A program made the translations under genes and the position numbers. Of a stretch of DNA of 64,000 nt, positions 32,598 through 46,548 are shown piece after piece. Source of the DNA: Planctomycetota bacterium (lineage in GTDB: Bacteria; Planctomycetota; Phycisphaerae; WQYP01); contig JAJZJL010000003.1 of assembly GCA_021810145.1 (NCBI GenBank), positions 7,218-71,217 of the forward strand. The letters are read 5' to 3'. The number at the start of each line of letters is the position of its first letter. The stretch's first letter is position 1. The notes beneath the pieces are model-generated. The model saw only the letters and a list, made by a program, of their open reading frames with translations, searched no databases and had not been told where the DNA came from.

Positions 32598-34151
32598 ATG
32601 GCCATTGATACCCTTATTGCCATGACCGCACTCCCGCCACCCTCATTGCATGTCCCCCGATGGCGACTATTGACAGCGTGGCTTTTTCTGTTCCTGATGG
32701 CACTTGCGATAGACCAGATATGGGTTCATCTCTGGCGGATTGTACCGATCGGTTACGCGACGACAAGGTTGACGGAACCCATTTCAAGCAATGGCGGAGT
32801 TAATTATGTGCGGGCGCTGAACCAATTGGCTTGCAAGGGGGTCACGGGTGGTAATAATGCGGCGGTGTTATTAATCAGGGCGGTGGGGCCCGGTCAGTTC
32901 CCGGAGCGGACTTGGTATGGCAAGAATATTTTACGACAACTGGATATGCCGCCATTCGCGCCTGGCGCGAGCCGGCTTATCTCGCTTTCCGACTGGATTG
33001 AGAAACACCCTCTACCGGCGAACTCGAGCCGCGACGCTCGGCGGCGCATGGAGTTGAGACTCGGCAGCGAACCGTGGACGGCGACAAACTATCCCGTGAT
33101 CGCACAATGGATACGAGCCAATAACCGGCCGCTTTTACTGTTGGCCCAAGCAACCAGGCGGCCACGCTACTATGTTCCCCTGGAGAGTCCGGACCACGGC
33201 TTGGTACACGCCCGAGTGCCCCTGCTCCGCCCTCTTACGCGCCTGACTTCGGTCGCGGCAATGCGCGGGATGTTGCGGCTTGGCCAGGGTAACATTGCCG
33301 GCGCAACGCGCTGGGCCAATCGAATCCATCGATTGGCGGTACTGGTCATGCAGGCTCCTGACGTTGTTTCATATCTTGTGGGACTGCGTTTTGAGAATAT
33401 TGCGATGAGGATGTTTCAGGCGGTGGCAAATTCGGGCAGGCTTTCCGTCAAGCAACTCGACGCCCTGTCTCATTCGGTCGAGAGCCTTGCTGAACTTCCA
33501 CCTCTTACGGAAGCCCTGAATGATCAACGTTACACCGGATTAAGCATGCTCATGATGCTCGACCAGAATGGTTTGATGATCCTTCGTATCCATCACGTTT
33601 CGCGCACGGAAAAGGAATTTGTGAACGCAATTTTTCCAATAGATTATGCGGCGATGATGCGGCGAGAAAACCGGATTTTCGATAAGGAGGTGGCGGCCGC
33701 GAAGCGGACAGACTTTCTGGAAGAATGCCGTGAGATGCAGCGACTCAAGAATGTCATCGATGGTTACGCTTCACCCCTTCGTGTCGCATTGAATCCCGCA
33801 GATATTGCAGTCGTGCTGGCGAATCCGGCTGCGGTTCACATTGCCAGTTACCGCCGGGGCGCGGCTGTGATCCGGTGTCTCACGGAGGTTGCCATCGCGC
33901 TGGCGCAATTCAAATTGGTGCATGGGAGCTACCCCGCCGCGCTGGCCGACCTTGTACCGGGCGAGCTTAAAAGCCCTCCCATCGACGCGTTCAGCGGAGG
34001 GCCGTTTCAATATGCCGTTACCAGCGACCGACGGGGCTTCCGGGTGAAGAGTCATGGGCCGCCGCCGGGCGTGGGGGGATGGAGGCTCAACGCCGATATG
34101 GCTCCATTTATTACCGCCCGAGGCGGGAACTGGCCGGCAGCGCAGAGGTAA
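32598..34151 (+). CDS. hypothetical membrane-anchored helical protein
   Basis: The long ORF starts at TTG 32547 in the track; the first ATG is at 32598. There is one TM segment ('LLTAWLFLFLMALAI'), a helical body and the C-terminal motif 'IDAFSGGPFQYAV...GFRVKSHGP'. No family was assigned. Confidence 0.4.
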   Translation: MAIDTLIAMTALPPPSLHVPRWRLLTAWLFLFLMALAIDQIWVHLWRIVPIGYATTRLTEPISSNGGVNYVRALNQLACKGVTGGNNAAVLLIRAVGPGQFPERTWYGKNILRQLDMPPFAPGASRLISLSDWIEKHPLPANSSRDARRRMELRLGSEPWTATNYPVIAQWIRANNRPLLLLAQATRRPRYYVPLESPDHGLVHARVPLLRPLTRLTSVAAMRGMLRLGQGNIAGATRWANRIHRLAVLVMQAPDVVSYLVGLRFENIAMRMFQAVANSGRLSVKQLDALSHSVESLAELPPLTEALNDQRYTGLSMLMMLDQNGLMILRIHHVSRTEKEFVNAIFPIDYAAMMRRENRIFDKEVAAAKRTDFLEECREMQRLKNVIDGYASPLRVALNPADIAVVLANPAAVHIASYRRGAAVIRCLTEVAIALAQFKLVHGSYPAALADLVPGELKSPPIDAFSGGPFQYAVTSDRRGFRVKSHGPPPGVGGWRLNADMAPFITARGGNWPAAQR

Positions 34152-34320
34152 GGAACGCAGGTCTTGCGTTGCGAGGAACGGCGCAATTAAGCGAAACGCG
34201 AAAAAGAGAATATGCCCAACCCAAGCAGTGTTCACTTGGTGACGCAAACTGCGATCATGTAATTGCCGGATATAGCGAGCCGCTTTGCCGAGGATGGTTC
34301 CGATAGTTAAAATTCGCGTC

Positions 34321-35448
34321 ATGTTGACGCGCATGTATGTGGATAATTATAAGTGCTTCGTAAATTTCGAGTGTAACTTTGCATCCAAGCAGTTAATTCT
34401 TGGCGCAAACGGGACTGGAAAGACAACGATTCTCGATGTACTTGCCACGCTGCGCGATTTCTGCATCCGTGGCGAGGCAATTGCGGACCGTTTTGGCGGG
34501 AGGTCGCGTACAAGATGGCAGAACCCAGCCGTGCCCGAACAGACATTTGAACTGGACGTCACCGGGAATAACGGAATCTATACGCTTCGCCTGGTGGTCG
34601 ATTCATGGGGCGTCCCGGAGCGGCCGCGCGTCATAACGGAATCCGTGAGTTATTCCGGAAAGCCAATTTTTCGGTTTGAGAGGGGTGAAGTTTTTCTATA
34701 CAACGATCAGCATGAAGAAAAGGTGAAATACCCCTTTGACTGGCATCGCTCGGCACTGGCAACGATCGCGGAACGCCGAGACAACCGAAAGCTTTGCTGG
34801 TTCAAGAACTGGCTGGGCGAACTGCTATACGTCAGCCCCGACCCCAGAAAGATCAGCGGGGTTGCGTCGCGGGAGTTGAAATACCCGGACCAATATCTGG
34901 AAAATTTTGCGGACTGGTTTCGACATCTCCGCCAAGAAACCGACGACCACGCATATATCAAGGATCTTACGGAGGTCATTGAGGGATTTTCCGCTATGCG
35001 TCTGGAGGATGCGGGCGAACACCGCCGAGAGATCAAAATTCGATTGGCCCCTTTCGGTGGCGACCGAAATGGAAAACCGATAACCGAATATCTGCTAAGT
35101 GAACTCTCTGACGGCCAGCGGGTGCTCATTGCGCTCTACGCCATTCTGCACTTTTCCGTCAAACCCGGCGCAACGCTGTGTTTTGACGAGCCGGACAATT
35201 TTATCGCGCTTGGAGAGATCCAAGCGTGGCTTACCAAAATCCTTGAACGTGCTGAGGATGTTGAGCCAGAATGTCAGGTTCTAATTGTCTCCCACCATCC
35301 GGAGCTTCTCAACCGCATGGCGTTCCAGAATGGGCTGCTACTCGATCGTCCGGACGGACGCCACGCCCGTTGTCGGCGCTTTGGCGATACGTTGCAAACA
35401 GGATTGACCGCCGCGGAACTAATGGCCCGGGGATGGGACAATGGGTAA
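34321..35448 (+). CDS. ABC/SMC-like ATPase of the AAA_21/AAA_15 (OLD / AriA / RloA-like) type
   Basis: 'MLTRMYVDNYKCF' N-terminus, then Walker A 'GANGTGKTT', signature-like 'LSDGQRVLIAL', Walker B 'LCFDEPDNF' and H-loop 'VSHHPELL'. The track start 34285 is TTG; the ATG at 34321 fits the family N-terminus. Confidence 0.7.
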   Translation: MLTRMYVDNYKCFVNFECNFASKQLILGANGTGKTTILDVLATLRDFCIRGEAIADRFGGRSRTRWQNPAVPEQTFELDVTGNNGIYTLRLVVDSWGVPERPRVITESVSYSGKPIFRFERGEVFLYNDQHEEKVKYPFDWHRSALATIAERRDNRKLCWFKNWLGELLYVSPDPRKISGVASRELKYPDQYLENFADWFRHLRQETDDHAYIKDLTEVIEGFSAMRLEDAGEHRREIKIRLAPFGGDRNGKPITEYLLSELSDGQRVLIALYAILHFSVKPGATLCFDEPDNFIALGEIQAWLTKILERAEDVEPECQVLIVSHHPELLNRMAFQNGLLLDRPDGRHARCRRFGDTLQTGLTAAELMARGWDNG

Positions 35449-35452
35449 GTGA

Positions 35453-35986
35453 ATGTCGCAAGTGATCCTGCTTTGCGAGGACGATCCGCAGGAACGGTTG
35501 GTTCGCTGTTATCTGGAGCAGTGCGGTTTCAATACGGCGGCACCGTATCTGCGACCGATTAACGCCAGCCGGATGGTCCACGGCGGAAACGTGCAGTGGG
35601 TGCTGCGCGAGTTTCCCAACCAGCTTCAGGCCTGTCGCAAACGCCACGCTGCGTTCGCGAATACACTGCTGATTGTCGTAGCGGATGCGGATGACTTTGC
35701 CGTTAAGGATCGCGAAAGGCAGTTTTGGGAGGTGCCACTGGAAAGCAATGCCGACGATCCGCTTGTGATACTGATTCCACGCCGCCATGTCGAAACGTGG
35801 ATACGCTCCGCTCTCGGTGATGCGGTTAATGAAACCGACGGCTACAAAACACCCAAGCCAGGGAAAAGTGACATCCGACTCGCCGCTCAGCGCATTCATG
35901 CATGGTGTCACAGCCAAGAGGAACCCGTCCCAGGGTGTGTACAGTCGCTGCGTGCGGCTTTACCGCTGTGGCGGAGAATCGGATAG
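35453..35986 (+). CDS. small Toprim-like / RloB-like (DUF4276-like) protein, partner of the upstream ATPase
   Basis: The ATG lies 4 nt after the ATPase stop. 'VILLCEDDPQERLVRCYL' resembles the 'CEGxxTE' strand of RloB/Toprim proteins, 'LLIVVADADDF' supplies a DxD, and 'LIPRRHVETWI' resembles the RloB 'NPCFELW' block. Assignment is by motif pattern only. Confidence 0.45.
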   Translation: MSQVILLCEDDPQERLVRCYLEQCGFNTAAPYLRPINASRMVHGGNVQWVLREFPNQLQACRKRHAAFANTLLIVVADADDFAVKDRERQFWEVPLESNADDPLVILIPRRHVETWIRSALGDAVNETDGYKTPKPGKSDIRLAAQRIHAWCHSQEEPVPGCVQSLRAALPLWRRIG

Positions 35987-35990
35987 CGTG

Positions 35991-36773
35991 TCATGGCTTT
36001 TCAGCTTCGATTTTTCCCAGCAAACGCAGCAGGCCATCAAGAATGGTCATCGGGTGCGGCGGGCAGCCGGGGATGAAGAGGTCAATGGGTACCACGCTGG
36101 CGGCACCGTTATGGACTTCGGGGTGGTTGATAAAGGGGCCGCCGGACAGCGCACAGGCACCGACGGCGATGACAATTTTGGGATCCGGCACGGCATCATA
36201 GGCCGTTTTCAGGGCTTGCTTCATATTTTCCGTTACCGGCCCGGTAATCAGCAGGCCATCGGCATGACGCGGAGAGGCGACAAAAGATATTCCGAAGCGG
36301 GACAAATCCCAGCCAATGGTGTTCAGCACGTTAACATCAGATTCACAGCCGTTGCAGCCGCCGGCACAGACCTGCCGCAGTTGCAGGCTGCGGCCAAAGA
36401 GCTTCCGCAATTTACCGTCCAGTGCGGCAGCCAATTTGAGTTCCTGCCCCGCATCAACAACAAGATCCGATGCCTGCCGCACGGTCAGGCGATAATCGCG
36501 CGAATAGGTTATCGCTTTTTCCGGACATGAATCGGCACAATCCGTACAGAACAGGCAGCGGCCCATATCCAGCTTTATGGCGCCATCAGCAATGGCAATC
36601 GCCTGCGTGGGACAGGCATCGGCGCATTGTCGGCAGGTATCCGGACATCGGGCGGCATCAAATATCGGCCGGCCACGAAATCGCGCCGGCATTTCCGGCG
36701 CCGGCGCGCCGGCATCGGGATAACGCATGGTGCGGTGACCCTGTTGAATACGGGTAATGAGCGTTTTTATCAT
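35991..36773 (-). CDS. fused 2x[4Fe-4S] ferredoxin (HycF/HyfH-like) + NuoB/HycG-like small subunit of a group-4-hydrogenase-related complex
   Basis: N-terminal half has 'CRQCADACP' and 'CLFCTDCADSCP'. C-terminal half has 'GGCNGCESD', 'GACALSGGPF' and 'IPGCPPHP' (NuoB/HycG cluster ligands). Confidence 0.8.
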   Translation of the reverse strand: MIKTLITRIQQGHRTMRYPDAGAPAPEMPARFRGRPIFDAARCPDTCRQCADACPTQAIAIADGAIKLDMGRCLFCTDCADSCPEKAITYSRDYRLTVRQASDLVVDAGQELKLAAALDGKLRKLFGRSLQLRQVCAGGCNGCESDVNVLNTIGWDLSRFGISFVASPRHADGLLITGPVTENMKQALKTAYDAVPDPKIVIAVGACALSGGPFINHPEVHNGAASVVPIDLFIPGCPPHPMTILDGLLRLLGKIEAEKP

Positions 36774-36801
36774 CGCATGTTCTCCGATGGATCAGCGGGA
36801 A

Positions 36802-38352
36802 TCATAAATCATGGCCGCAATACGAAAGACTGAAACTCTTGTTACACAGCGGAAAATCAGAAATCTGCTTTCCCCGCACCGCCATTGCGACGGCCGGCCA
36901 GTTATGAAACGATGGATCCACAATTTTATAACGTTCAAAACGGCCCTGAGCATCGGTCAGAGCCACATGACAAACCTGCCCGCGCCAGGCTTCCTGCAAA
37001 GTCACAACCAGGGACTCGGGTTGCGGGGCGGAGACTTCGGCCTGCAGTGCTCCGACCGGCAGGGCTTTCAGTTGATCCCGGAGAAACTGTATGGACCGTT
37101 GAATCTCCAGCCAACGGACATACGCCCGGGCAAATACGTCACCGCCGCGCCAGGTGGACACGGGAATATGGCTGAACTGATAAATCCCCGAAGGGTGATC
37201 ACGCCGCGAATCCATATCCACGCCGCAGGCCCGGGCCGCCGGACCCACCATGCCGAGTTCCGTTGCGGTTTCTTTGGAAACCGCACCAATGCCTTCAAAT
37301 CGGGCCATCACCGATGAGGTCTCCCACAACAGATTAATGGCCGCACGGGATTCGCGTTCGGCAACGTCCAGCCGCTTGAGCAAATCCGCGGCAAGCGACG
37401 CATCGATATCAAAGCCAACCCCGCCGATGCGCAGCAATCCACGACCAAATCGATTGCCGCAAAGCGCCGCGGTCATATTCAGAAAATCGCCGCGGATGCG
37501 CCCACAGAATGAAGCGGATGGCAGAAAACCGGCATCACCGGATAAGGCGCCCAGATCACCAACGTGGTTGGCCAGACGTTCAAGTTCCAGGGCAATTCCG
37601 CGGATGGCGGCGGCGCGCGGACTGATCTGGCAACTCCCCAGCGATTCGATCATTTGCGCGTAAGCGCAGCCATGGCCGATGGTGGTATCTCCGGCAAGTG
37701 TTTCGGCGTAATGCAACGATCGCTTATCCGGTCCGCCCCGCATTGCTCTTTCAACCCCACGATGCTGGTAGCCCAGAGCTATTTCCAGATGCAGTATGGT
37801 TTCGCCGTCGCACTGAAAACGGAAGTGTCCTGGCTCAATAACACCGGCATGAATCGGCCCGACGGCCACCTCGTGCACCTGCCCGCCGGTGATCTGATAA
37901 AAATCCATGACTCCCGCCTGCACGACATCCGCAGGGCCGCGATTCCAGGCATCGGCCCCGGCGCGATAACTGCGGTGAAAGCGCACCGGCTTGAGCCAGG
38001 GATGCCCCAGTGGCTTAACGCCAAATTGTTCGGCAATTTCACGCTCAAACAAATGTACCTGCGGGCATTGGGGTGTTAATGACGGGAACCCGTCGGCGGA
38101 TACGCCGGTCCGGGCGATATGCAGCCGGCCATGCTGATCATCGGCCAGCACCACATACAAGGAGATCTTAAAACTGTTCTCAGAATCCGTTGCGCCAAAA
38201 AGGGCGCAAACTCTGCGGCGGTCCCGCAGAGCATCAAGAATCGCCCCTTGAAACTGCGGCAAGGGCAGTTCGGGTATTGCGGATCGGGCGACAGGCTGCC
38301 CGCTGGATATTTCCGCCAATGACAGGTTGTGCGATGAAGCGGACAGACTCAT
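36802..38352 (-). CDS. NuoC-NuoD / HycE-like large subunit lacking [NiFe] cysteine ligands (Ehr-type)
   Basis: 'GPIHAGVIEPGHFRF', 'LGYQHRGVE' and 'GPAARACGVDMDSR' blocks. There is no CxxC pair anywhere in the protein. The L1 position reads 'LAGDTTIGHGCAYAQ' and the C-terminus reads 'FPLCNKSFSLSYCGHDL'. Confidence 0.8.
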   Translation of the reverse strand: MSLSASSHNLSLAEISSGQPVARSAIPELPLPQFQGAILDALRDRRRVCALFGATDSENSFKISLYVVLADDQHGRLHIARTGVSADGFPSLTPQCPQVHLFEREIAEQFGVKPLGHPWLKPVRFHRSYRAGADAWNRGPADVVQAGVMDFYQITGGQVHEVAVGPIHAGVIEPGHFRFQCDGETILHLEIALGYQHRGVERAMRGGPDKRSLHYAETLAGDTTIGHGCAYAQMIESLGSCQISPRAAAIRGIALELERLANHVGDLGALSGDAGFLPSASFCGRIRGDFLNMTAALCGNRFGRGLLRIGGVGFDIDASLAADLLKRLDVAERESRAAINLLWETSSVMARFEGIGAVSKETATELGMVGPAARACGVDMDSRRDHPSGIYQFSHIPVSTWRGGDVFARAYVRWLEIQRSIQFLRDQLKALPVGALQAEVSAPQPESLVVTLQEAWRGQVCHVALTDAQGRFERYKIVDPSFHNWPAVAMAVRGKQISDFPLCNKSFSLSYCGHDL

Positions 38353-39788
38353 GGCCGCACCTCCATAAATGTCTGCGCCTGATGCAGCAGGTGAGACAGG
38401 AACGGCGGAATATGCACTCCCAGCATCAATACAAGAAGACAGGACAGTATCAGCGGCAAGCCGGTCAGCAGCCCATCGCGGTATATGTTCCCGGATTGTT
38501 TTCGCGGCAGAGGCCGTCCGAGCACCACGGTCAGTACGGTTCGGCCCATACCGATAAACACCAGCAGCAGCAGCAGGAGAAACAACCCGCCAATGAGAAA
38601 CAAATGGGCGGAAAAGGCGGCGTTCAAAATGGTAAACAGGCTCACAAACGGTCCAAACGGCGGCGAGCCGGTAATCGCCAGAAAGCCGAGCATAAAAACG
38701 GTGCCCGACAAAGGCAGCCGCCGCATTGCACCGTGAACATCATCGGTGCTTTTACTGCCGTAAGAGCGGTGAATATTGCCGGCGGCGAGAAACAGCATGC
38801 CTTTGGTCAGAGCATTATTGATCATTTGCAGAATCGCGCCAAAAAGTGCCGGGCCTCCAATGCCCGCACCCAGCGCCAGAATTCCCATTTGCTCCACACT
38901 TGAATACGCCAACATGCGTTTGATATCTTTCTGGCCCAGCACAAATACCGCCGCCACGGCCATGGATAGCAGTCCCATGCCTATAAGCAGATGACTCGTG
39001 TAGGTCTGCAGGCCGCCGGCAATGCAGACGCGATCGACGCGTAAAATTGCCAGAAATGCCAGACTCGTCAAGCCTCCCGCCAATAAAGCGCCTACCACAC
39101 CCGGCGCTTCGCCATACGCATCGGGCTTCCAGGTGTGCATCGGCGCCAGCCCCATTTTGGTGCCGTATCCGACCAGTAAAAATACAAATGCGATTTTAAG
39201 CCAGACCGCATTATCCGCTCCCGCATGCCGCACCAGATGTGAAAACAGCAACGTCGGATGCGGGTTATTGGCCAGTGAAGCGTAGACCAGAAAAAATGAA
39301 CCCAACAGCGCCAGCGCAATGCCGACTGAACTTAACAGCAAGTACTTCCAGGTGGCTTCTATGGAAAGCGGCGTGCGATTGAAATAAATCATCGGGGCGG
39401 TGCTCAGAGCGGTGGATTCTATGGCAATCCACATCAATCCCAGTTGCTGCGAGCACGTTACCAGCGTGGCACCGGCGAGAAATATCAGAAGGCACGGTAT
39501 TAACACCCGATTGGACCGCTCGGTTCGATAGCGCAAATAACCGACGATATACATTGAACAGATCAGAAACAATGTGCTGATTAGCAGCAGCGTCAGTTTT
39601 CCCGGCGGGTCCAGTGCAACCCAGCCACCCCATATCGGTGCGGCAGGCACAATCAGAACCGTCAGCACTGCCGCAAAATGCAGGCTCGCCGCCAGCGGCA
39701 TAATCCATGGGCGCACCGTGTTGGAAGTAATGGCTCCGGCTGCAAGAGCCGCAAGAAGCGGAATGAAAATAAGTATCGGCAAGAACAT
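38349..39788 (-). CDS. NuoN/HyfF/MnhD-like antiporter-type membrane subunit
   Basis: 479-aa polytopic protein with 'KMGLAPMHTWKPDAYGEAP' and 'KRMLAYSSVEQMG' proton-pumping-subunit blocks. It overlaps the next gene by 4 nt (ATGA). Confidence 0.8.
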   Translation of the reverse strand: MFLPILIFIPLLAALAAGAITSNTVRPWIMPLAASLHFAAVLTVLIVPAAPIWGGWVALDPPGKLTLLLISTLFLICSMYIVGYLRYRTERSNRVLIPCLLIFLAGATLVTCSQQLGLMWIAIESTALSTAPMIYFNRTPLSIEATWKYLLLSSVGIALALLGSFFLVYASLANNPHPTLLFSHLVRHAGADNAVWLKIAFVFLLVGYGTKMGLAPMHTWKPDAYGEAPGVVGALLAGGLTSLAFLAILRVDRVCIAGGLQTYTSHLLIGMGLLSMAVAAVFVLGQKDIKRMLAYSSVEQMGILALGAGIGGPALFGAILQMINNALTKGMLFLAAGNIHRSYGSKSTDDVHGAMRRLPLSGTVFMLGFLAITGSPPFGPFVSLFTILNAAFSAHLFLIGGLFLLLLLLVFIGMGRTVLTVVLGRPLPRKQSGNIYRDGLLTGLPLILSCLLVLMLGVHIPPFLSHLLHQAQTFMEVRP

Positions 39789-39794
39789 GCTGGT

Positions 39795-40436
39795 TTATTC
39801 CTTCAAGGCTGTAAGCTGTCGGGTATCCAGGGATGAAAAGGCTTCATTGATGTGATTGAGGATAATACTGACCACAAAAATGCCCACAAATAAATCCAGC
39901 AGAATGCCTAATTCCACCAGAAATGGCACGGCCGCCAGCAGCAACATGCCGAAAATATAAATTCCATTTTCAAGAATCAGATAACCGATGACCTGCGTAA
40001 TGGCTTTGTACCGTGTGGTTAACAGCAAAAATCCCGTGAGCACCGTGGAAAATGACGCGGGAATAATCAGCGCGGCGATGCGCGTCTGAATCATGGGCAG
40101 ATATGCGGCAAAAGTAATGGACAAAGCTGTTCCCATCGCGCCCAGCAGCATGGTGGGCAAAAAGCCGATCAGCGGTTCAACCTCGCGCTTGATCTGCGCA
40201 TCGCGCAGAGCTTTGTGCAGCATCTGCGGAATCAACAGGCCCTTAATCGCGGCCGTTACCGCCGCCACAAAGATAATCATCACGTCAATGCGCTTTTCCA
40301 GAAGCAACGGCAAGGCGCTTAAAATAACACCCTGTGCGGCTGCAGAGTAAATAAGGGACCTCATGCGGCTGACGCCGAGCATGAACAGGTTCAGCAGCAG
40401 CACAATAACCAGTGGTGTATTAATCGACCAGTGCAT
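39795..40436 (-). CDS. HyfE-like small membrane subunit
   Basis: 213 aa with about 7 hydrophobic segments. Position and size match HyfE in hyf-type operons. Confidence 0.65.
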   Translation of the reverse strand: MHWSINTPLVIVLLLNLFMLGVSRMRSLIYSAAAQGVILSALPLLLEKRIDVMIIFVAAVTAAIKGLLIPQMLHKALRDAQIKREVEPLIGFLPTMLLGAMGTALSITFAAYLPMIQTRIAALIIPASFSTVLTGFLLLTTRYKAITQVIGYLILENGIYIFGMLLLAAVPFLVELGILLDLFVGIFVVSIILNHINEAFSSLDTRQLTALKE

Positions 40437-40439
40437 GAT

Positions 40440-41351
40440 CTACCTCACCATCAGAACAAAACCGAAACCGCATAACAGGCTTGCCGCCGCCAGCAGCGTG
40501 GGCACATGCCGCATCTGCAGGCGAGCCATAAATGATTCCACCGTCCCTATTACGCCGGCCATGGCAATTAACTCGACGGGAAACAGCACCCAGTCCACCC
40601 CGGGCACGCCGGCATGAAACGGCACCAGCAGATGTAAAACCAGAGCGCTTAGCACAAGCAGCTTCATCGCCGAGCCATATTGAATCAGCCCCAGCAACGG
40701 GCCGCTGTTATCCAGCACCATAACCTCATGAATCATGGTTAATTCCAGATGCGTATTCGGATCATCCACGGGAATCCGGGAATTTTCCGCCAGCAGCACA
40801 ATGAATAATCCGGCGGCAGCCAGCAATACGGGTGCCTCCGGCCGATGCGCCAGCGGTGCCAACAGCATCGGCGTGAGACTGACACTGCCGGACAGGCGAA
40901 CCAGAACCAGTAGTCCCAGGAGAACGGCGGCCTCGGAAAGGCAGGCAAAAGTCATCTCCCGCGCCGCCCCCATTGCTTCAAAGGATGATCCGGTATCCAA
41001 CGCGGCGGATGTAGTGAAAAAACGCGCCAATCCGAACAGATATACAAACAGAATTAAATCACCGGTAAAGTGAATCGGAGCGGCGAACGGCCCAAATGGC
41101 ACCAGCAACCCCGCCAGCAGCGTGGCCGCCAGCGTTACCACCGGTGCCGCCTGAAATACCCATGTGGTGGTGGTGCTGATAACCATGCCCTTGCGCAGCA
41201 ATTTGTAAATGTCATAATAGGGCTGCAGCAGCGGCGGTCCTTTGCGCCCCGCGAAAACCGCCTTGGTTCTGTTTATCACACCGGGCAGCAGCGGCGGCAT
41301 TGCAACCAGCAAGCCGATGTGAATCAGTGGATTTATGATATTCTCAAACAT
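40440..41351 (-). CDS. NuoH/HycD/HyfC-like membrane subunit
   Basis: 303-aa polytopic protein with 'VFAGRKGPPLLQPYYDIYKL' (the NuoH/HycD N-terminal loop block) and 'ENSRIPVDDPNTHLELTM'. Confidence 0.8.
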   Translation of the reverse strand: MFENIINPLIHIGLLVAMPPLLPGVINRTKAVFAGRKGPPLLQPYYDIYKLLRKGMVISTTTTWVFQAAPVVTLAATLLAGLLVPFGPFAAPIHFTGDLILFVYLFGLARFFTTSAALDTGSSFEAMGAAREMTFACLSEAAVLLGLLVLVRLSGSVSLTPMLLAPLAHRPEAPVLLAAAGLFIVLLAENSRIPVDDPNTHLELTMIHEVMVLDNSGPLLGLIQYGSAMKLLVLSALVLHLLVPFHAGVPGVDWVLFPVELIAMAGVIGTVESFMARLQMRHVPTLLAAASLLCGFGFVLMVR

Positions 41352-41393
41352 GGGTCACCTTACAGCGCGTATCCGCCGGATTTTCGCACAACC

Positions 41394-43400
41394 TCAAAAG
41401 CCAAGCGCCAGCAACAGCAGCAGCAGTATTGCCAGCATATAAGCCAGATACATATTGACCGGCTTGTTCTGCAGTGGTCTTAATCGCGCCAGCAATCGCC
41501 GCGTTAAGGCAAAGCAGGGAATTAATCCGCGATCCAGCACCACATCGGGAACATCGCGAACAATTTCCATCGGCTGCGGACAATAGCGCGGCACGGGTAA
41601 TTCAGCATGCGTATTGGGAATCATCCACGAGAACATCTGCGCCAGCATTCGGGAAAAGGACGCCCCGGTGTACTGCATCCGCGATGAGGTTCGGGCGCAG
41701 GCACAACTCCAGGTGGGACGCCTGACGGCGGCCCGGGTTTTTCGCACGGCCCAGAGTACCGAAACAATTGCCGCTGCCGCCAGCAACAGCACCGCATTTA
41801 CGATTGCCATTTCAAGTAAAGGTGCCAAGGCTCCAATTGAACCGCCGGCAGTCGTCGCCCGCGGCGCCCAGTCGTGTATTGCGCGGGCAAGAAATGGCAT
41901 TGTAACGTCGGGAAATAAGGCCATCGCGCAGCATCCGGATGCCAGAATTCCCATGGGCAGAAGCATTGCGGCGCCCGGATCATGCGCGTGACTTATTTGG
42001 TCTGAACGCTTATTACCCAGAAACACCGAACCGGTTAATTTCACGAAGCCTGCCACCGCCAATGCCCCGGTTGCGGCCAGAGCGCCAGCCGCCAGTGAAA
42101 TCCAGACCAATGTACCGCCCTGTGGCACCGTCGCGGTGCGCAGCAAACCCAGATAGATCAGCCATTCGCTTAGAAAGCCGTTCAACCCCGGCAACCCGCA
42201 GATCGCCAGAGCACCCGTAAAAAACAGGATGGCGGTAATCGGCATTTTCGCCGCCAGTCCCCCCAGAGAATCTATTTTCCGCGTATGCGTGGCGTGCAGC
42301 AGGTTGCCCGCTCCCATAAACAGCAGAGGCTTAAATAAGCTGTGATTAAGAACATGGAACAACGCTCCGCCCAATCCCAACACAATAAGATCCGGACGAT
42401 TGACAGATCTGCCGATCAGGGCCAGGCCCAGGCCCATGCAGACAATTCCCATGTTCTCAACACTGCTGTACGCCAGCAGTCGCTTGTAATCGTTCTGGCA
42501 AACCGCAAAAATCACTCCCACCACCGCCGATCCGGCTCCGAGAATCAACAACGTCAAACCCCACCATAGCGGCGGCGCGGTCATTGTTTCACCGATACGC
42601 AGGAGGCCATAAATTCCAATGTTCAGCATTACCCCGGAAAACAATGCCGAAACATGGCTTGGCGCATTGGCGTGAGCACCGGGGAGCCAAACATGCAGCG
42701 GCATAATTCCGGCCTTTAATCCAAAGCCCACCAGAGCCAATATAAACATTGCCGCCGCCATTGCCGAAGGCACCGAGCCATGAAGCGTTATCCACAAATC
42801 AAACGATCCCGTCGTAAGGCGCATCAGTACAACCATCGCCACCAGCGCAATTATTCCAATGTGCGCGGCAATAAGATAAATCCAACCGGCCGCATGAACG
42901 CCTGGGTCATGATCTTCCGTGGTAATGAGAAAAAATGCCGCCAGAGCCATGACTTCCCATGCCATCAGAAACAGCACGCCATCACGCGCCAGCACCACCA
43001 TCATCATTGCGGCGTTCATGATTCCCCAGCACAATCGCAGCTTGCGTCCATTGCCGGGATGCCGGTTCTGTTTCCAATACTCCATGGCGTAAATGGAACC
43101 TGCTATGGAAATGCCCAAAACAGGCATAAGAAACAGAGCGGTTATGCAATCCAGCCCGACGCCAAACCTGCCCCATGGCAACGACCAGGGCCAGGTCAGG
43201 GTTTGAATCCGGGATCCACTTGAGACAAACATCAGCAATGCCGCGCCACCGAGAAGTGTGGCCAGCAGGTTCAAGAGCATCGCAATGCGTTGTCCCGTCA
43301 TGCCGCGGCGGCTGAAAAACAAGCCCGGCACACCCGAAAGGGTCATGCAGAAAACGGATGCCAGAGTTATATATAATGACATGTACATATCAAAGTTCAT
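41394..43400 (-). CDS. NuoL/HyfB-like antiporter-type membrane subunit (copy 2)
   Basis: 668 aa with 'KAGIMPLHVWLPGAHANAPSHVSAL', 'KRLLAYSSVENMG' and 'HSLFKPLLFMGAG'. Confidence 0.8.
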   Translation of the reverse strand: MNFDMYMSLYITLASVFCMTLSGVPGLFFSRRGMTGQRIAMLLNLLATLLGGAALLMFVSSGSRIQTLTWPWSLPWGRFGVGLDCITALFLMPVLGISIAGSIYAMEYWKQNRHPGNGRKLRLCWGIMNAAMMMVVLARDGVLFLMAWEVMALAAFFLITTEDHDPGVHAAGWIYLIAAHIGIIALVAMVVLMRLTTGSFDLWITLHGSVPSAMAAAMFILALVGFGLKAGIMPLHVWLPGAHANAPSHVSALFSGVMLNIGIYGLLRIGETMTAPPLWWGLTLLILGAGSAVVGVIFAVCQNDYKRLLAYSSVENMGIVCMGLGLALIGRSVNRPDLIVLGLGGALFHVLNHSLFKPLLFMGAGNLLHATHTRKIDSLGGLAAKMPITAILFFTGALAICGLPGLNGFLSEWLIYLGLLRTATVPQGGTLVWISLAAGALAATGALAVAGFVKLTGSVFLGNKRSDQISHAHDPGAAMLLPMGILASGCCAMALFPDVTMPFLARAIHDWAPRATTAGGSIGALAPLLEMAIVNAVLLLAAAAIVSVLWAVRKTRAAVRRPTWSCACARTSSRMQYTGASFSRMLAQMFSWMIPNTHAELPVPRYCPQPMEIVRDVPDVVLDRGLIPCFALTRRLLARLRPLQNKPVNMYLAYMLAILLLLLLALGF

Positions 43401-43415
43401 TCCACATTACAATCA

Positions 43416-45434
43416 TTAACGCCCCATGATGCGCGTCACAATACTGGCAACCGGAATCAGCGATGCCAGCAGCACAAACAGCACCAGAACGATATACAGC
43501 AGATATTCCTGTACGCTGCCCTGTTGCACCCGTCGCACCGGAACCAGCATTCGCTTCAAGCGGTCCCATCCGGTAAACGCCGCACGGTCGGTAATCAGGT
43601 CCGGAATATGCGTTTGCCGGTCGATCGGTTCCGCAAAAAGTTTCTCCGGGACCGAGCCATGCGTTACGGGGCGAGCAATCCACCGCAACAATCCCAGAAG
43701 CATTTCGGCAAAGGAAGCGGCGGTGTATTGCATACGGCTGCTTGGGCGGGCATAAGCGCACGCCCATGTCGCAGCGCGCGGTGAGACGGCATGACGCCGT
43801 GTTGCCGGCAGTGCCATAATCAATAACACGATCACGATAACCGCGGCAAAGCCGGTGGAAACCACGCTCAGTGTTTGCCAGGGCAGCGCCGATGCCAGAC
43901 GATGGGCCATCGTCACATCGCCGGCCCACGCCGCCACCGCATGTCCCAGCGGCAGCACCACGATAACCGGCGCAAGACCAATCAGGGCACACACGCCCGC
44001 GAGAACCACCATCGGCCCGATCATGCTGATCGGCGATTCGTGTGCTTTCGTCGGAAGATCGGTGCGAGCACTACCCAGAAATACGCTTCCAAATACTTTT
44101 ACAAAACACGCCACCGCCAAAGCTCCAACCGCTGCCAGCGCTCCCGCTCCGAAAGCCACTGCCGCCCAGCCGCCCGCAGTGGCGTTTGCCGCCGGGGTCA
44201 GCAATCCGACGTACACCAGTAATTCACTGATGAAACCGTTCAATGGCGGCAATCCGCAGATGGCAATGGCACCAACCAGGAACAGCCCCGCACTCCATGG
44301 CATGCGCTTGGCCAGAGACCCAAGCGAATCGAGTTCCCGCGTACCGGTGGCGTGAACCACCGATCCCGCGGAAAGAAACAGCAGCGATTTGAACAAGCCG
44401 TGGTTCCACACATGCAGTAAACAGCCGGCCATTCCCAGCACAACAAACACCGGGGCGTGCAGCGATTTGCCGATCATGGCCAACCCCAATGCCATGAGAA
44501 TAATGCCGATATTTTCAATGCTGTGATAGGCCAACAGGCGCTTGATGTCATGTTGCCCCAGCGCCAAGATCACCCCCAGCAGAGCGTTAACGGTACCAAG
44601 TGACAGAATCACAACGCCCCATACCGCCGGCGGGTTGGGTAGCAGTGTCAATATGCGAAGCAAACCATATATTCCTATTTTCAGCAGCACACCTGAGAGT
44701 TGCGCTGAAATATGACTTGGCGCATTGGCGTGCGCCCCGGGCAACCAGAAATGCAGGGGCATAATCCCGGCCTTAAGACCAAACCCAAATAGCGCTAAAA
44801 GAAATATTGCCGTCTCCAGACCAATGCCGGTTGCGGCTGGAACCGGCGTAAGCTGAAAAGTCCCCGACGCCGCATGCAGCAATGCAAACATCGCAAATAA
44901 TGCCAGCGTGCCAATATGGGTGGCGACAAAATACACCCAGGCCGCCTGCCGGCATTCGGGTTTGTGGTCTTCGGTGGCAATGAGAAAAAAACTCGTCAGA
45001 GCCATGATTTCCCAGGCCAGCAGAAAAGCCAGCGCGCCGTACGCCAGTGTTACCATCACCATCGAGGCAATCAGCAGGCCATAAAGGAATCGCAATTTTC
45101 GCCCGGTTGCCGGGTGTTCCGCCTGCCGCCAATACCCCTGGCCATAAACAGAGCCGGCTGCTGCCAACACAAATATCAGCAGCGTAAAGAATGCCGATAG
45201 AGCATCCATACGCAAATGCAAAGCAACACCAGGCCATATCCCCGGAAGTGAAGTCATGCGTACATGTCCACTGATCAGGGCCAGCAATCCACCGATGAGG
45301 CCGGATACAGAACCCAAAAGCGTCAGCATTGTGGCGACAGTTTGTCCCCAGCCAGCGCGTCGCGGCACCGCCAACCCCGGCAGCCCGCTGATGGCCATGA
45401 GCGTGCAAGCCAAAAGTGTCAGAGACATTTCCAT
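43416..45434 (-). CDS. NuoL/HyfB-like antiporter-type membrane subunit (copy 1)
   Basis: 'KAGIMPLHFWLPGAHANAPSHISAQ', 'KRLLAYHSIENIG' and 'HGLFKSLLFLSAG'. The ATG at 45434 (MEMSLT...) is preceded by GGAG; the track start 45500 extends upstream. Confidence 0.8.
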   Translation of the reverse strand: MEMSLTLLACTLMAISGLPGLAVPRRAGWGQTVATMLTLLGSVSGLIGGLLALISGHVRMTSLPGIWPGVALHLRMDALSAFFTLLIFVLAAAGSVYGQGYWRQAEHPATGRKLRFLYGLLIASMVMVTLAYGALAFLLAWEIMALTSFFLIATEDHKPECRQAAWVYFVATHIGTLALFAMFALLHAASGTFQLTPVPAATGIGLETAIFLLALFGFGLKAGIMPLHFWLPGAHANAPSHISAQLSGVLLKIGIYGLLRILTLLPNPPAVWGVVILSLGTVNALLGVILALGQHDIKRLLAYHSIENIGIILMALGLAMIGKSLHAPVFVVLGMAGCLLHVWNHGLFKSLLFLSAGSVVHATGTRELDSLGSLAKRMPWSAGLFLVGAIAICGLPPLNGFISELLVYVGLLTPAANATAGGWAAVAFGAGALAAVGALAVACFVKVFGSVFLGSARTDLPTKAHESPISMIGPMVVLAGVCALIGLAPVIVVLPLGHAVAAWAGDVTMAHRLASALPWQTLSVVSTGFAAVIVIVLLIMALPATRRHAVSPRAATWACAYARPSSRMQYTAASFAEMLLGLLRWIARPVTHGSVPEKLFAEPIDRQTHIPDLITDRAAFTGWDRLKRMLVPVRRVQQGSVQEYLLYIVLVLFVLLASLIPVASIVTRIMGR

Positions 45435-45534
45435 AGCGACTCCAATTTTCGGCGGGACCTCAGGGCCACGCGACCAGGCGGCCCTCCCGCTCGAAAGCAT
45501 GCATCCGGGTTATGCACAACCCGCGGGCGGAAAA

Positions 45535-46275
45535 CTAATCGGGGGCGCCGATCGCCTGCGGATTCGCCACTGTTTTCCCGGATCCAGCCGCTGGCGTAAT
45601 TTCCGCCTCTGCCTTGGCCAGAGCACTGGTGATATCTTCACGCGATGCCTGCCGCATAATGGCACTGCGAAAATCGCCATTTCGTAACACAAAGCCCAAG
45701 CGCGAAAGCAAATGCAGATGCGCTCGCACCGTGGGACTCACCAGGGTGAATAATGTTGTGACGGGCTGATGATCAATCGCGCCGAATTCCACCGGGTTTT
45801 CCAGAAAGCACAGCGCTACCAGTGGCCGCGATAAGTGCAGAACGATTGGATTGCGCACATGCGGAATGGCGATGCCGTCGCCAATTCCGGTGGACCCCAA
45901 TGCCTCGCGTGCCAGAAGCACCTGATACAAAAATTCGCGATCCACTTCTTCCGGCAACTTCATGACATCCACCACCGAATGCAGTACGCCCGCCTTATCC
46001 TGCCCGCCAATGCGATAATGCACCCCACCGGCACGTAATGCTTCGGTTAATGACGGAGGCGGGGTATCGCCTCCTTCCGGTTCTTTGAATATCTCGGGTG
46101 AAACGTTCAATCGTCTGGATGTGGCCCATTCCAACAGCTCGGCCCGATTAAAGCGATATTGGTCATTGACTTGGTATGCGGGGATGGCACCATCCTTTAT
46201 CCATCGATAAATGCTTTTCTCTGAAACACTTAGCAATCTAGCGGCGTCTTTGACTGTCAATTTCACGAACTGCAT
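45535..46275 (-). CDS. helix-turn-helix (excisionase/MerR-like HTH) fused to PTS EIIA(Ntr)/PtsN-like domain
   Basis: N-terminus 'LTVKDAARLLSVSEKSIYRWIKDGAIPAYQV', C-terminal EIIA-2 block 'REALGSTGIGDGIAIPHVRNP', and 'LFTLVSP...HLHLLSRL'. AAGGAG lies directly upstream of the ATG at 46275. Confidence 0.7.
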   Translation of the reverse strand: MQFVKLTVKDAARLLSVSEKSIYRWIKDGAIPAYQVNDQYRFNRAELLEWATSRRLNVSPEIFKEPEGGDTPPPSLTEALRAGGVHYRIGGQDKAGVLHSVVDVMKLPEEVDREFLYQVLLAREALGSTGIGDGIAIPHVRNPIVLHLSRPLVALCFLENPVEFGAIDHQPVTTLFTLVSPTVRAHLHLLSRLGFVLRNGDFRSAIMRQASREDITSALAKAEAEITPAAGSGKTVANPQAIGAPD

Positions 46276-46548
46276 CTCCTTAGGACAACATCGTACATTA
46301 TCGACATTTTGTCCACAAAAGTCCAATAGAGAGAAATATTGCATATAGCAAGATATAAAATACATATTACAGACAATAATTTCCTATAACGATTATTCGC
46401 TTGCATGAATACATGATGCGATTTTTAATGACTCAGACATGTTGCCAACCGAGACAACGCAGTGTCAAAGTCGTCACTACGCGATATTTTCAGTGTCAAT
46501 TATGACATTGAATTATAATTTCAAATTGAAAAATAAAGCCAAAAATCA

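Follow-up and report, generated by a model that had tools for sequence, protein, structure and literature searches.

What reaction is to be expected of a membrane complex that resembles a group-4 [NiFe] hydrogenase in fold and gene order but whose large subunit has no ligands for the Ni-Fe centre? The question is raised by an operon on the minus strand of a 64,000-nucleotide stretch of DNA from an uncultured planctomycete (assembly GCA_021810145.1, contig JAJZJL010000003.1, positions 7,218 to 71,217; hereafter, the window). The eight genes between positions 35991 and 46275 of the window encode a complete Ehr (Ech-hydrogenase-related or energy-converting hydrogenase-related)/Hyq-type complex together with its own regulator, and this complex is an ordinary member of the crown subfamily of a known family. 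The Ehr complex of Geobacter sulfurreducens (GSU0739-0745) reportedly received its name from Coppi, and complexes of this kind are said to have been surveyed by Marreiros et al. in 2013. They have been described as group-4 hydrogenase relatives that lack the Ni-Fe ligands and have no known function (PMC6349859, PMC10284858), and ehr and the alphaproteobacterial hyq have been grouped as subtypes without canonical Ni-Fe ligands (PMC4758237). In G. sulfurreducens, GSU0739-45 are described as an Ech-hydrogenase-related complex with subunits named EhrA-1, EhrC, EhrL and EhrS, the role of which was never investigated (PMC7894505).

The large subunit and the loss of the Ni-Fe ligands

The large subunit, EhrL, contains no CxxC pair anywhere in its 516 amino acids; its cysteines lie at positions 49, 96, 181, 229, 241, 283, 298, 376, 461, 503 and 512. 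Its top sequence match in the Protein Data Bank (PDB) is HycE of the Escherichia coli formate hydrogenlyase (7Z0S_E, 5e-50, HMMER), followed by Thermus Nqo4 (7e-35), MbhL (9e-35) and MbsL (6u8y_L, 6.7e-17). The HMMER alignment pairs 'RVCGICGFAH' of HycE with 'TLAGDTTIGH' of EhrL, and 'RMCGICSFSH' of MbhL pairs identically; in a MAFFT alignment with E. coli HycE, HyfG and NuoCD, the C-terminal 'DPCYSCTDR' of HycE stands opposite 'SLSYCGHDL'. Where hydrogenases carry the L1 motif RxCGxCxxxH, EhrL reads ETLAGDTTIGH, and in place of the L2 motif DPCxxCxx(H/R) it has SLSYCGHDL, with which the protein stops at the 'DR' position of HycE, so that there is no C-terminal extension. The four Ni-Fe cysteine positions are occupied by Ala220, Thr223, Ser510 and Gly513. 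An initial annotation of the locus, made from the letters alone, had described a large subunit devoid of Ni-Fe cysteines and of any CxxC pair, and the alignments with HycE, HyfG, NuoCD and MbhL bear this out at all four positions. A sequencing error or a broken reading frame is ruled out as the source of the missing ligands, given that the identical 516-residue protein was called on 17 contigs in NCBI, JGI and ENA assemblies, and that 79-100% of the words sampled from this DNA recur in DNA runs of several studies covering mine drainage, tailings, wastewater, soil and sediment.

In other respects, EhrL is a typical large subunit of its class. An AlphaFold2 model built from a 67-row alignment (pLDDT 94.2, pTM 0.94) has the group-4 large-subunit fold, with HycE (7z0s_E) as the best structural match (TM-score 0.88/0.85) followed by E. 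coli NuoCD (0.82-0.84). The beta1-beta2 loop, GPIHAGVIEPGHFR, is of the hydrogenase type (GPxHxxxxEPGHFR) and not NuoD-like, and the scores against the NuoD equivalog models are far below the cut-offs (179 bits vs 360 for NF004739 and 153 vs 459 for TIGR01962). The old ligand positions are embedded in sequence that is strongly conserved within the family. In an alignment of 114 representatives and homologues plus references, the motifs GP[IV]HAG[IV]IEPGHFR, E-x-x-[AS]-G-D-[ST]-x-x-[GA]-H and LCNKSFNLSY-[CSA]-G-x-DL stand out; residues E173, H176, G221, D222, N504, K505, S506, S510, Y511, G513 and D515 are invariant or nearly so, and 50 columns are invariant among 23 diverse members. The cysteines C181, C283, C298, C503 and C512 are typical of the crown group and are not universal: C503 is kept in 78 of 105 sequences and C512 in 63, and some basal members have no cysteine at all in the C-terminal motif.

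In a maximum likelihood tree of 119 rows (quick search, LG+G4), all 105 sequences that lack the Ni-Fe cysteines form a single clade with an SH-aLRT support of 99, which holds the EhrL of the window within the crown group and a Rhizobium homologue of HyqG on a basal branch. Just outside this clade are relatives that have all four cysteines, then HycE and HyfG, with Nuo as the outgroup; EhrL accordingly falls where the initial annotation had expected an Ehr-type subunit, and not within Nuo. Given the monophyly of the 105 Cys-less rows, the preferred interpretation is that the ligands were lost once, on the stem of the Ehr family. The four-Cys relatives are a few representatives with 32-39% identity to EhrL that keep CGxC along with C(Y/F)xC...D(R/L). 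Three planctomycete genomes also have four-Cys proteins ('ERICGVCAASH' and 'LINKSFELCYSCTDL'). These relatives share with the operon studied here the A-B-C-D-L-S gene order (letters as in Table 1) and the ferredoxin-NuoB fusion, and the members of the sister clade L066, L067, L069, P0219 and P0223 additionally share the NKSF motif. The best explanation of this pattern appears to be that the EhrL operon descends from a six-subunit group-4 [NiFe] hydrogenase that lost its Ni-Fe site.

The family is large and broadly distributed. A word-indexed search yields more than 8000 homologues of EhrL, and scanning all 1.84 billion cluster representatives with HMMER gives 920 matches below 1e-30. The 120 best homologues (63-99% identity) come from Phycisphaerae, Tepidisphaeraceae, Fontivita, Gemmataceae, Latescibacteria and 'Deltaproteobacteria'. 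Two peptide patterns of the family match at least 600 stretches of species-representative genomes, 597 of which encode an EhrL relative; the relatives named below are the best 80 of these at least 597 stretches. They represent Planctomycetota, Verrucomicrobiota, Acidobacteriota (Geothrix paludis), Thermodesulfobacteriota (Geomonas limicola, Geobacter sp., Pelobacter sp. and Geobacteraceae), Spirochaetota, Lentisphaerota, Kiritimatiellota, Gemmatimonadota, Fibrobacterota, Omnitrophota, Myxococcota, Chlamydiota, Hydrogenedentota, Riflebacteria and Pseudomonadota. Within the organism's own class, Ehr is found only in this genome and, as one partial match, in genome G299, among the 17 genomes included in the phylum sample described below, and the nearest relatives in the tree belong to other phyla (Latescibacteria and 'Deltaproteobacteria'); the cassette thus looks horizontally acquired in this genome. 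The organism is an uncultured planctomycete, the DNA of which comes from mine drainage, wastewater and soil.

Among the named systems, the Ehr complex of G. sulfurreducens is the closest counterpart. Its seven structural genes follow the order seen here, with two NuoL-like EhrA subunits and a HyfE-like EhrC among the products (PMC7894505), and its large subunit is without the Ni-Fe ligands (PMC4758237). We found no substantial difference between the two complexes apart from the host, the link resting on other Geobacteraceae sequences that are outside the tree and were placed by their 55-57% EhrL identity and identical layout: in both Geomonas limicola (L099, 57%) and Pelobacter sp. (L101), the genes are arranged R-A-A-B-C-D-L-S, as they are in the window. 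The Hyq system of Azorhizobium caulinodans, hyqRBCEFGI, which depends on NifA and is under NifA/sigma-54 control (PMC2650096), was compared through a homologue of HyqG encoded on a Rhizobium plasmid and the published statement on its ligands (PMC4758237). This homologue belongs to the same Cys-less clade, with SGDS and LCNKSFNCSYSGHDL at the ligand positions, and the gene order B-C-E-F-G-I, the regulator gene in front and the separation from a canonical nuo operon are all similar. The differences are considerable as well: the Rhizobium protein is only 33% identical to EhrL and on a basal branch, there is one HyqB instead of two HyfB-like genes, HyqI is a NuoB-like protein without the 2x[4Fe-4S] domain, the upstream regulator in Rhizobium has an XRE-type helix-turn-helix (HTH) rather than an HTH-EIIA architecture, and an H2 phenotype has been reported for Azorhizobium hyq. 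Compared with the group-4 [NiFe] hydrogenases themselves (HyfABCDEFGHI, and Hyc with PDB entry 7Z0S), the complex shares, besides the fold and the loop, the gene order and membrane subunits of the HyfB, HyfC, HyfE and HyfF types; in contrast to these enzymes, it has no HycB/FdhF partner and no HycI protease, and its presence is independent of Hyp. Taken together, the missing Ni-Fe ligands, the position in the Cys-less clade and the separation from the canonical NuoD of the genome support the assignment to the Ehr type made in the initial annotation. Its remark that such complexes are known only from comparative genomics does not hold: there are deletion and reporter genetics for hyq (PMC2650096, PMC3357923) and proteomics for Geobacter (PMC7894505).

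Electron entry, membrane arm and regulator

The seven structural genes are packed end to end in the window at 35991-45434, with intergenic distances from -4 to 42 nucleotides (Table 1), and encode in one operon all subunits typical of a group-4 hydrogenase; their number, hyf-like order and coordinates were given correctly in the initial annotation, as confirmed by a check of the reading frames and by Pfam and NCBIfam matches. These matches are Oxidored_q6 (NuoB, 2.8e-29) plus Fer4 domains for EhrS, Complex1_49kDa (6.6e-38) and Complex1_30kDa (2.3e-07) for EhrL, Proton_antipo_M with HyfF as the nearest NCBIfam model (1.6e-93, 314 bits vs a cut-off of 610) for EhrD, the HyfE model of NCBIfam (1.4e-20, 74 bits vs 136) with no Pfam match for EhrC, NADHdh (NuoH, 2e-31) for EhrB, the sequence of which remains 48-70% identical among related loci, and HyfB for both EhrA-1 (5.2e-170, 567 bits vs 667) and EhrA-2 (5.1e-165, 551 bits vs 667). 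All equivalog scores of the seven subunits fall short of the curated cut-offs, so that these subunits are relatives rather than orthologues of the E. coli Hyf and Nuo proteins.

Table 1. Genes of the Ehr operon, its regulator gene and the adjacent putative control region (positions in the window)
Feature	Position	Strand	Description
EhrS	35991..36773	-	260 aa; HycF/NuoI-like 2x[4Fe-4S] domain (residues 1 to ~112) fused to NuoB/HycG-like domain
EhrL	36802..38352	-	516 aa; NuoC-NuoD/HycE-like large subunit without Ni-Fe ligands
EhrD	38349..39788	-	479 aa; HyfF/NuoN-like antiporter-type subunit, degenerate charged-residue set
EhrC	39795..40436	-	213 aa; HyfE-like membrane subunit
EhrB	40440..41351	-	303 aa; NuoH/HyfC/HycD-like membrane subunit
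EhrA-2	41394..43400	-	668 aa (664 aa in NCBI gene calls); second HyfB/NuoL-like antiporter-type subunit
EhrA-1	43416..45434	-	672 aa; HyfB/NuoL-like antiporter-type subunit
EhrR	45535..46275	-	HTH_17 (excisionase/MerR-like) DNA-binding domain fused to PTS EIIA-2 (PtsN-like) domain
Putative promoter/operator of the regulator gene	46276..46330	-	TGGACT-17-GATAAT overlapped by GGACA/TGTCC-type half-sites

The small subunit EhrS combines two electron-carrying modules. The N-terminal 112 residues match HycF, HyfH and NuoI and contain the ferredoxin-like motifs Cx3Cx2Cx3CP and Cx2Cx2Cx3CP. In the second domain, the CxxC, C and CP cysteines stand opposite the residues that bind the cluster in NuoB, HycG and HyfI, as expected of a proximal [4Fe-4S] cluster, so that the motifs GGCNGCE, GACALSGG and GCPPHP had been correctly taken for cluster-binding in the initial annotation. 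The fused 2x[4Fe-4S] module described there is likewise a general feature, with the ferredoxin domain present in 76 of the 81 related loci with a scorable small subunit. The Fe-S wire is unequally intact among members of the family.

The residues of the proton path were verified on the E. coli NuoL, NuoM and NuoN sequences and then mapped by alignment. EhrA-1 has the full charged set (E142, K221, K252, H341, H345, K349 and E404), and the corresponding residues of EhrA-2 are E149, K229, N260, H349, H353, K357 and E412; the position of N260, in transmembrane helix (TM) 8, is occupied by Lys in NuoM, NuoN and HyfB, by Thr in NuoL and by Asn in HyfF. Two of the three modules, EhrA-1 and EhrA-2, therefore look fully competent for ion translocation, whereas EhrD keeps E124, K211 and K329 of its set. 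Two A genes in tandem are likewise seen in 25 of 74 related loci, one of them that of Geomonas limicola.

Directly upstream of the operon, on the same strand, is the gene for a regulator, EhrR (243 or 246 aa), in which Pfam detects HTH_17 (1.6e-16) and PTS_EIIA_2 (2.8e-24); of the two candidate starts, ATG at 46275 and GTG at 46266, the latter is more likely. The motif G-x-G-[IL]-A-[IV]-P-H-x-R, which includes the phospho-acceptor histidine, is invariant in 19 homologues of EhrR. The domain has the EIIA-2 fold and the 'AIPH' histidine of PtsN-like proteins, and the genome encodes both HPr (on contig C97) and EI (on contig C50), the pair by which EhrR is probably phosphorylated. The regulator gene also precedes the operon in Fontivita, in a metagenome-assembled genome (MAG) of Latescibacteria (two copies) and in a 'Deltaproteobacteria' MAG. 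More generally, it adjoins the operon in at least 47 of the 74 related loci whose upstream sequence is long enough, on the same strand in 44 and divergently in 3; the true number may be higher, since the filter removed weak copies in Verrucomicrobiota. In seven loci of Verrucomicrobiota (L120, L124, L134, L135, L145, L146 and L151), a weak regulator-like match (27-32% identity) lies between the EhrA genes, in the order A-R-A-B-C-D-L-S. Among the loci with flanking genes listed, no conserved partner gene other than the regulator recurs beside the operon. The corresponding upstream position in the Rhizobium locus is occupied by a gene for an XRE-type HTH protein that is not related to EhrR, so that the HTH-EIIA partner is a trait of the crown group.

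Upstream of the regulator gene, TGTCY-N5-TGTCY repeats are found in 17 of 62 related loci compared with 0.5% of random windows from the same loci. The copy in the window is degenerate (GGACA ... ATGTCG, ATGTAC, TGTCC) and overlaps a TGGACT-17-GATAAT site, which a sigma-70 scan reports as a promoter-like match at 46325-46297. In the region as a whole, the scan finds such sites no more often than in shuffled sequence (10 vs 8.5), and the promoter call accordingly rests on position and comparison with relatives only; the TGGACT-17-GATAAT region is thus a putative promoter and operator of the regulator gene. The 100-nucleotide gap between the regulator gene and EhrA-1 (45435-45534) is GC-rich and contains a GGGTT...AACCC hairpin that could be an attenuator or a processing site. 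On the other side, the operon converges with a plus-strand gene pair at 34285-35986, encoding an ABC-type ATPase and a small Toprim-like protein; the stop codons are 4 nucleotides apart, and the pair has no RNA contigs in a mine-drainage metatranscriptome (X25).

Hydrogenase maturation, complex I and partner enzymes in the genome and the phylum

The assembly (4.47 Mb in 200 contigs, 93.9% complete) contains exactly two NuoD-like genes, namely that of EhrL and a canonical NuoD on contig C55 beside NuoE, NuoF and NuoG. The other canonical Nuo subunits (NuoB, NuoL/M/N, NuoH, NuoI and NuoC) are on contigs C145, C198, C56 and C55. The canonical complex I genes are spread over at least five places (NuoD/E/F/G; NuoC; NuoB; NuoL/M/N; NuoH; NuoI) and do not form one operon. 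With canonical Nuo encoded elsewhere and EhrL far under the NuoD cut-offs, a role of Ehr as part of the organism's complex I is ruled out. The resemblance to complex I is nonetheless extensive, as it includes NuoB, NuoC-D, NuoH and three NuoL/M/N-type modules with the same charged residues; the differences, besides the NuoD score and the residue at the quinone-binding tyrosine position discussed below, are that genes for NuoA, NuoJ and NuoK are missing from the Ehr operon.

The initial annotation had pointed out that no hyp genes, maturation protease, formate dehydrogenase or NuoEFG are encoded in the window. This is correct for the window, but hyp genes are not absent from the genome: on contig C83 (8365-22424, locus L012), HypF, HypD, HypE, HoxE, HoxF, HoxU, HoxY and HoxH are encoded in one row, with HypB nearby, and are followed directly by a gene for a 1203-residue pyruvate:ferredoxin oxidoreductase (PFOR). 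This row is a compact fermentative H2 module. Because the hyp genes flank HoxEFUYH, their presence is explained by the bidirectional Hox hydrogenase, and PFOR gives the genome a source of reduced ferredoxin. No molybdopterin formate dehydrogenase was found in the genome, the only molybdopterin-type enzyme being a NuoG-like remnant; at the completeness given above, a formate dehydrogenase partner of the kind suggested for Riflemargulisbacteria, and more tentatively for Geobacter, is rejected here.

The relationship between Ehr and Hyp can be assessed on 301 evenly sampled genomes of the phylum, 38 of which encode a crown-type EhrL (44-100% identity). HypD is above the family cut-off in 102 of the 301 genomes (103 at E <= 0.001), and it is as frequent with Ehr (14 of 38) as without it (88 of 263; odds ratio 1.16, Fisher p = 0.72). 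Thus, 24 of the 38 carriers have no HypD; in the 15 of these that were rechecked (89-98% complete), the HypF zinc finger is absent as well, while it was found in all three positive controls. As Ehr is equally frequent with and without Hyp, the family does not need the NiFe maturation machinery, and a hidden dependence of Ehr on Hyp is ruled out both by the association of hyp with HoxEFUYH and by the lack of any link across the phylum. This independence is a stronger argument that the complex is not a hydrogenase than the absence of hyp from the window. Two planctomycete genomes that are 99% complete encode a candidate four-Cys sister hydrogenase: G132 (L067, ERICGVCAASH ... CYSCTDL) and G112, where the candidate is assigned by 37% identity and the same 537-residue frame (compare L066 and L069). 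Searches of G132 and G112 gave no HypD and no HypF zinc finger; either hyp was missed twice or these are Hyp-independent four-Cys enzymes, which could be a step toward Ehr.

Of the 38 Ehr carriers, 29 also encode canonical NuoD, and in the remaining 9 Ehr is the sole NuoD-like protein found. The latter include all four sampled carriers of family f50 (G073, G121, G140 and G159) and both of family f45 (G253 and G268), in which Ehr may be the sole complex-I-type enzyme.

Possible reactions of the complex

Overall, these observations are best explained, in our judgement with moderate probability, by a Hyp-independent relative of complex I that would receive electrons from ferredoxin, couple a reduction in the remodelled pocket to ion translocation and be controlled by EhrR. 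In this scheme, the HycF-like domain of EhrS would be the docking site of a soluble carrier of low potential. This carrier is most likely reduced ferredoxin, of which PFOR is one possible source. Its electrons would travel along two [4Fe-4S] clusters, then to the proximal, N2-like cluster in the NuoB-like domain, and finally into a remodelled polar pocket where EhrL, EhrS and EhrB meet. The predicted pocket is lined by E173, H176, G221-D222-T223, N504-K505-S506, S510-Y511-C512-G513 and D515. An acceptor, most likely membrane menaquinone, would be reduced there, and the resulting charge changes would drive ion translocation through EhrB/EhrC and EhrD, EhrA-2 and EhrA-1; the complex could also run in reverse, with the membrane potential spent on moving electrons from quinol to ferredoxin. 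Expression would be set by EhrR, the PtsN-like EIIA domain of which is the presumed target of EI/HPr.

The individual parts of this scheme differ in strength. Ferredoxin is the probable donor, because the three-cluster wire has a ferredoxin-type entry, the operon contains no NuoEFG or HycB genes, there is no formate dehydrogenase partner and PFOR is present; the model that we propose for Ehr, in which electrons come from ferredoxin without NuoEFG, resembles the ferredoxin-dependent NDH-1 of cyanobacteria. A quinone as the acceptor is a tentative suggestion. Menaquinone is the most likely candidate because there are three pump modules, because the hosts are mostly respiratory and because Ehr is the sole complex-I-like enzyme in some lineages. 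The three modules, by analogy with complex I, suggest a large driving force, and the named carriers among the best 80 matches are largely from respiratory lineages; these lineages contain menaquinone. The direction of the reaction and the identity of the ion are likewise inferences.

Several lines of evidence weigh against this reading. The position of Tyr87 of Thermus Nqo4, which we take to be a ligand of the quinone head group, is occupied by Gly221 in EhrL ('RMDYLHSFAH' vs 'TLAGDTTIGH') and likewise by glycine in hydrogenases and in 101 of 105 family members; together with the hydrogenase-type loop, this implies that EhrL has no quinone site of the complex I type. In EhrD, the TM8 lysine, the two TM11 histidines and the TM12 Glu/Lys are replaced by S242, Q321, N325 and L384, respectively. 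Electron entry may vary by lineage, since basal members such as the rhizobial HyqI have no ferredoxin domain, EhrS of locus L053 (genome G051) lacks the cysteines of the first ferredoxin-type cluster ('NSAGHIADAVKACP') and EhrS of Fontivita pretiosa (L005:11561-12370) reads 'PGSPPHP', with Ser at the last ligand of the proximal cluster. The indications of expression are supportive only: the X25 metatranscriptome contains contigs with 99-100% identity on the regulator gene, EhrA-1, EhrA-2, EhrB and EhrL and none on the neighbouring genes at 34000-36700, with the highest depth (22.7) on the regulator gene and 5-10 on EhrA-1, but contigs from RNA runs may contain DNA and contig depth is a poor measure of expression. 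Furthermore, no acceptor has been shown for any Ehr complex (PMC10284858, PMC6349859, PMC7894505), and about 80% of the microaerobic H2 evolution of Azorhizobium has been attributed to hyq, independently of nifK (PMC3357923). If correct, the latter result points to H2 chemistry, and not to quinone reduction, as the end reaction.

E173, a glutamate kept in the family, corresponds to the Glu that precedes Pro in the beta1-beta2 loop of both MbhL and HycE, a residue that we take to act in proton transfer in hydrogenases. Along with the conservation of C181, C503 and C512 within the crown group and the presence of the Rhizobium HyqG homologue in the same Cys-less clade, this agrees with a cryptic hydrogenase, in which the remodelled pocket would make or consume H2 without the Hyp-built NiFe(CN)2CO centre. 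Such an activity was proposed for the Azorhizobium Hyq 'endo-hydrogenase', conceived as an H2:quinone oxidoreductase that acts both ways (PMC2650096, PMC3357923): without hyqRBCEFGI, diazotrophic growth is slower and about 80% of the microaerobic H2 evolution disappears (PMC2650096; PMC3357923), and a nifK hupSL double mutant still evolves H2 (PMC3357923). This evidence, however, is whole-cell genetics without an enzyme assay; all four metal ligands are lost, and the A/S, S/T, S and G found in their place cannot hold a NiFe centre; HypD is missing from 24 of the 38 carriers in the phylum, and HypF from the 15 that were rechecked; and the cysteines are not universal, with C503 and C512 retained at the frequencies given above and the C-terminal motif of some basal members free of them. 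H2 turnover by Ehr therefore appears quite improbable. A sulfur or disulfide reductase, in which electrons of ferredoxin would reduce polysulfide, persulfide or a disulfide at the old Ni-Fe pocket through C503 and C512, has a precedent in the MBS/Mbx complex of Pyrococcus furiosus (PDB 6U8Y), a descendant of group-4 hydrogenases that has lost the hydrogenase function and uses ferredoxin. To our knowledge, MBS is the only NiFe-free complex of this descent with a solved structure and an assigned reaction. EhrL does match MbsL, both cysteines lie within the motif that replaces DPCxxC and the organism occurs in mine drainage, but the similarity to MbsL (6.7e-17) is far weaker than that to HycE (5e-50) or MbhL (9e-35), and the pocket cysteines are missing in a quarter to 40% of the clade. 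In addition, no gene of sulfur metabolism is a conserved neighbour among the loci with flanking genes listed, and the archaeal MBS has about 13 subunits with a Mrp-type module, the extra subunits of which are absent from the seven-gene Ehr, so that Ehr does not qualify as an MBS complex. We regard this option as very unlikely.

The lack of a recognisable catalytic centre in EhrL and of any partner enzyme in the operon could also mean that there is no turnover at all and that the complex is a redox-gated ion translocator, in which the Fe-S chain would sense the ferredoxin pool and switch a Mrp-like cation/proton exchange under control of the PTS-Ntr type. The intact membrane arm, the loss of Fe-S ligands in some lineages (L053, L005) and the PtsN-like domain of the regulator are compatible with this scenario; PtsN proteins of E. 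coli control K+ homeostasis. Still, three clusters and a pocket with invariant D222, N504, K505, S506, Y511, G513 and D515 are conserved beyond the apparent needs of a sensor, and the NuoH-like and NuoB/NuoD-like coupling module has been retained even though Mrp antiporters work without it, which makes a sensor-switch unlikely. That the operon is a dead hydrogenase in decay, as the lost catalytic ligands and the degenerate residues of EhrD might suggest, has a negligible probability: the seven frames are open and tightly coupled, identical EhrL is present on 17 contigs, identity to hundreds of homologues across phyla is 63-86% with 50 invariant columns among 23 members, metatranscriptome contigs lie on parts of the operon and the protein was detected in Geobacter (PMC7894505). 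In G. sulfurreducens, Ehr subunits (GSU0739-45) were seen by proteomics and all were more abundant on formate (PMC7894505). Conservation and expression thus exclude a dead relic.

Beside the ferredoxin-fed, ion-translocating complex favoured here, a more far-reaching but rather remote prospect is that the rebuilt EhrL pocket is a new kind of catalytic site for Hyp-independent chemistry on a small substrate, which would be spreading horizontally over more than 10 phyla as an eight-gene cassette that includes a PTS-type switch. Such a site would be formed by G221-D222, N504-K505-S506, Y511, G513, D515, E173 and H176 along with C181, C503 and C512 of the crown group, and its candidate reactions would be H2 turnover, as hinted by the Azorhizobium hyq genetics, or reduction of an acceptor that is novel among relatives of complex I.

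Altogether, Ehr/Hyq complexes are among the most widespread relatives of complex I without an assigned reaction. As the family is known, the planctomycete copy adds detail rather than a new kind of system. The comparison provides several handles, namely the single loss of the ligands, four-Cys sisters with an identical operon, the independence from Hyp and a PtsN-like regulator with a recognisable operator, and there are cultured carriers in Geobacter, Geomonas, Geothrix and Fontivita. If the acceptor is indeed a quinone, Ehr would be a common way, overlooked so far, of connecting the ferredoxin pool with the respiratory chain of bacteria that live anaerobically or microaerobically.

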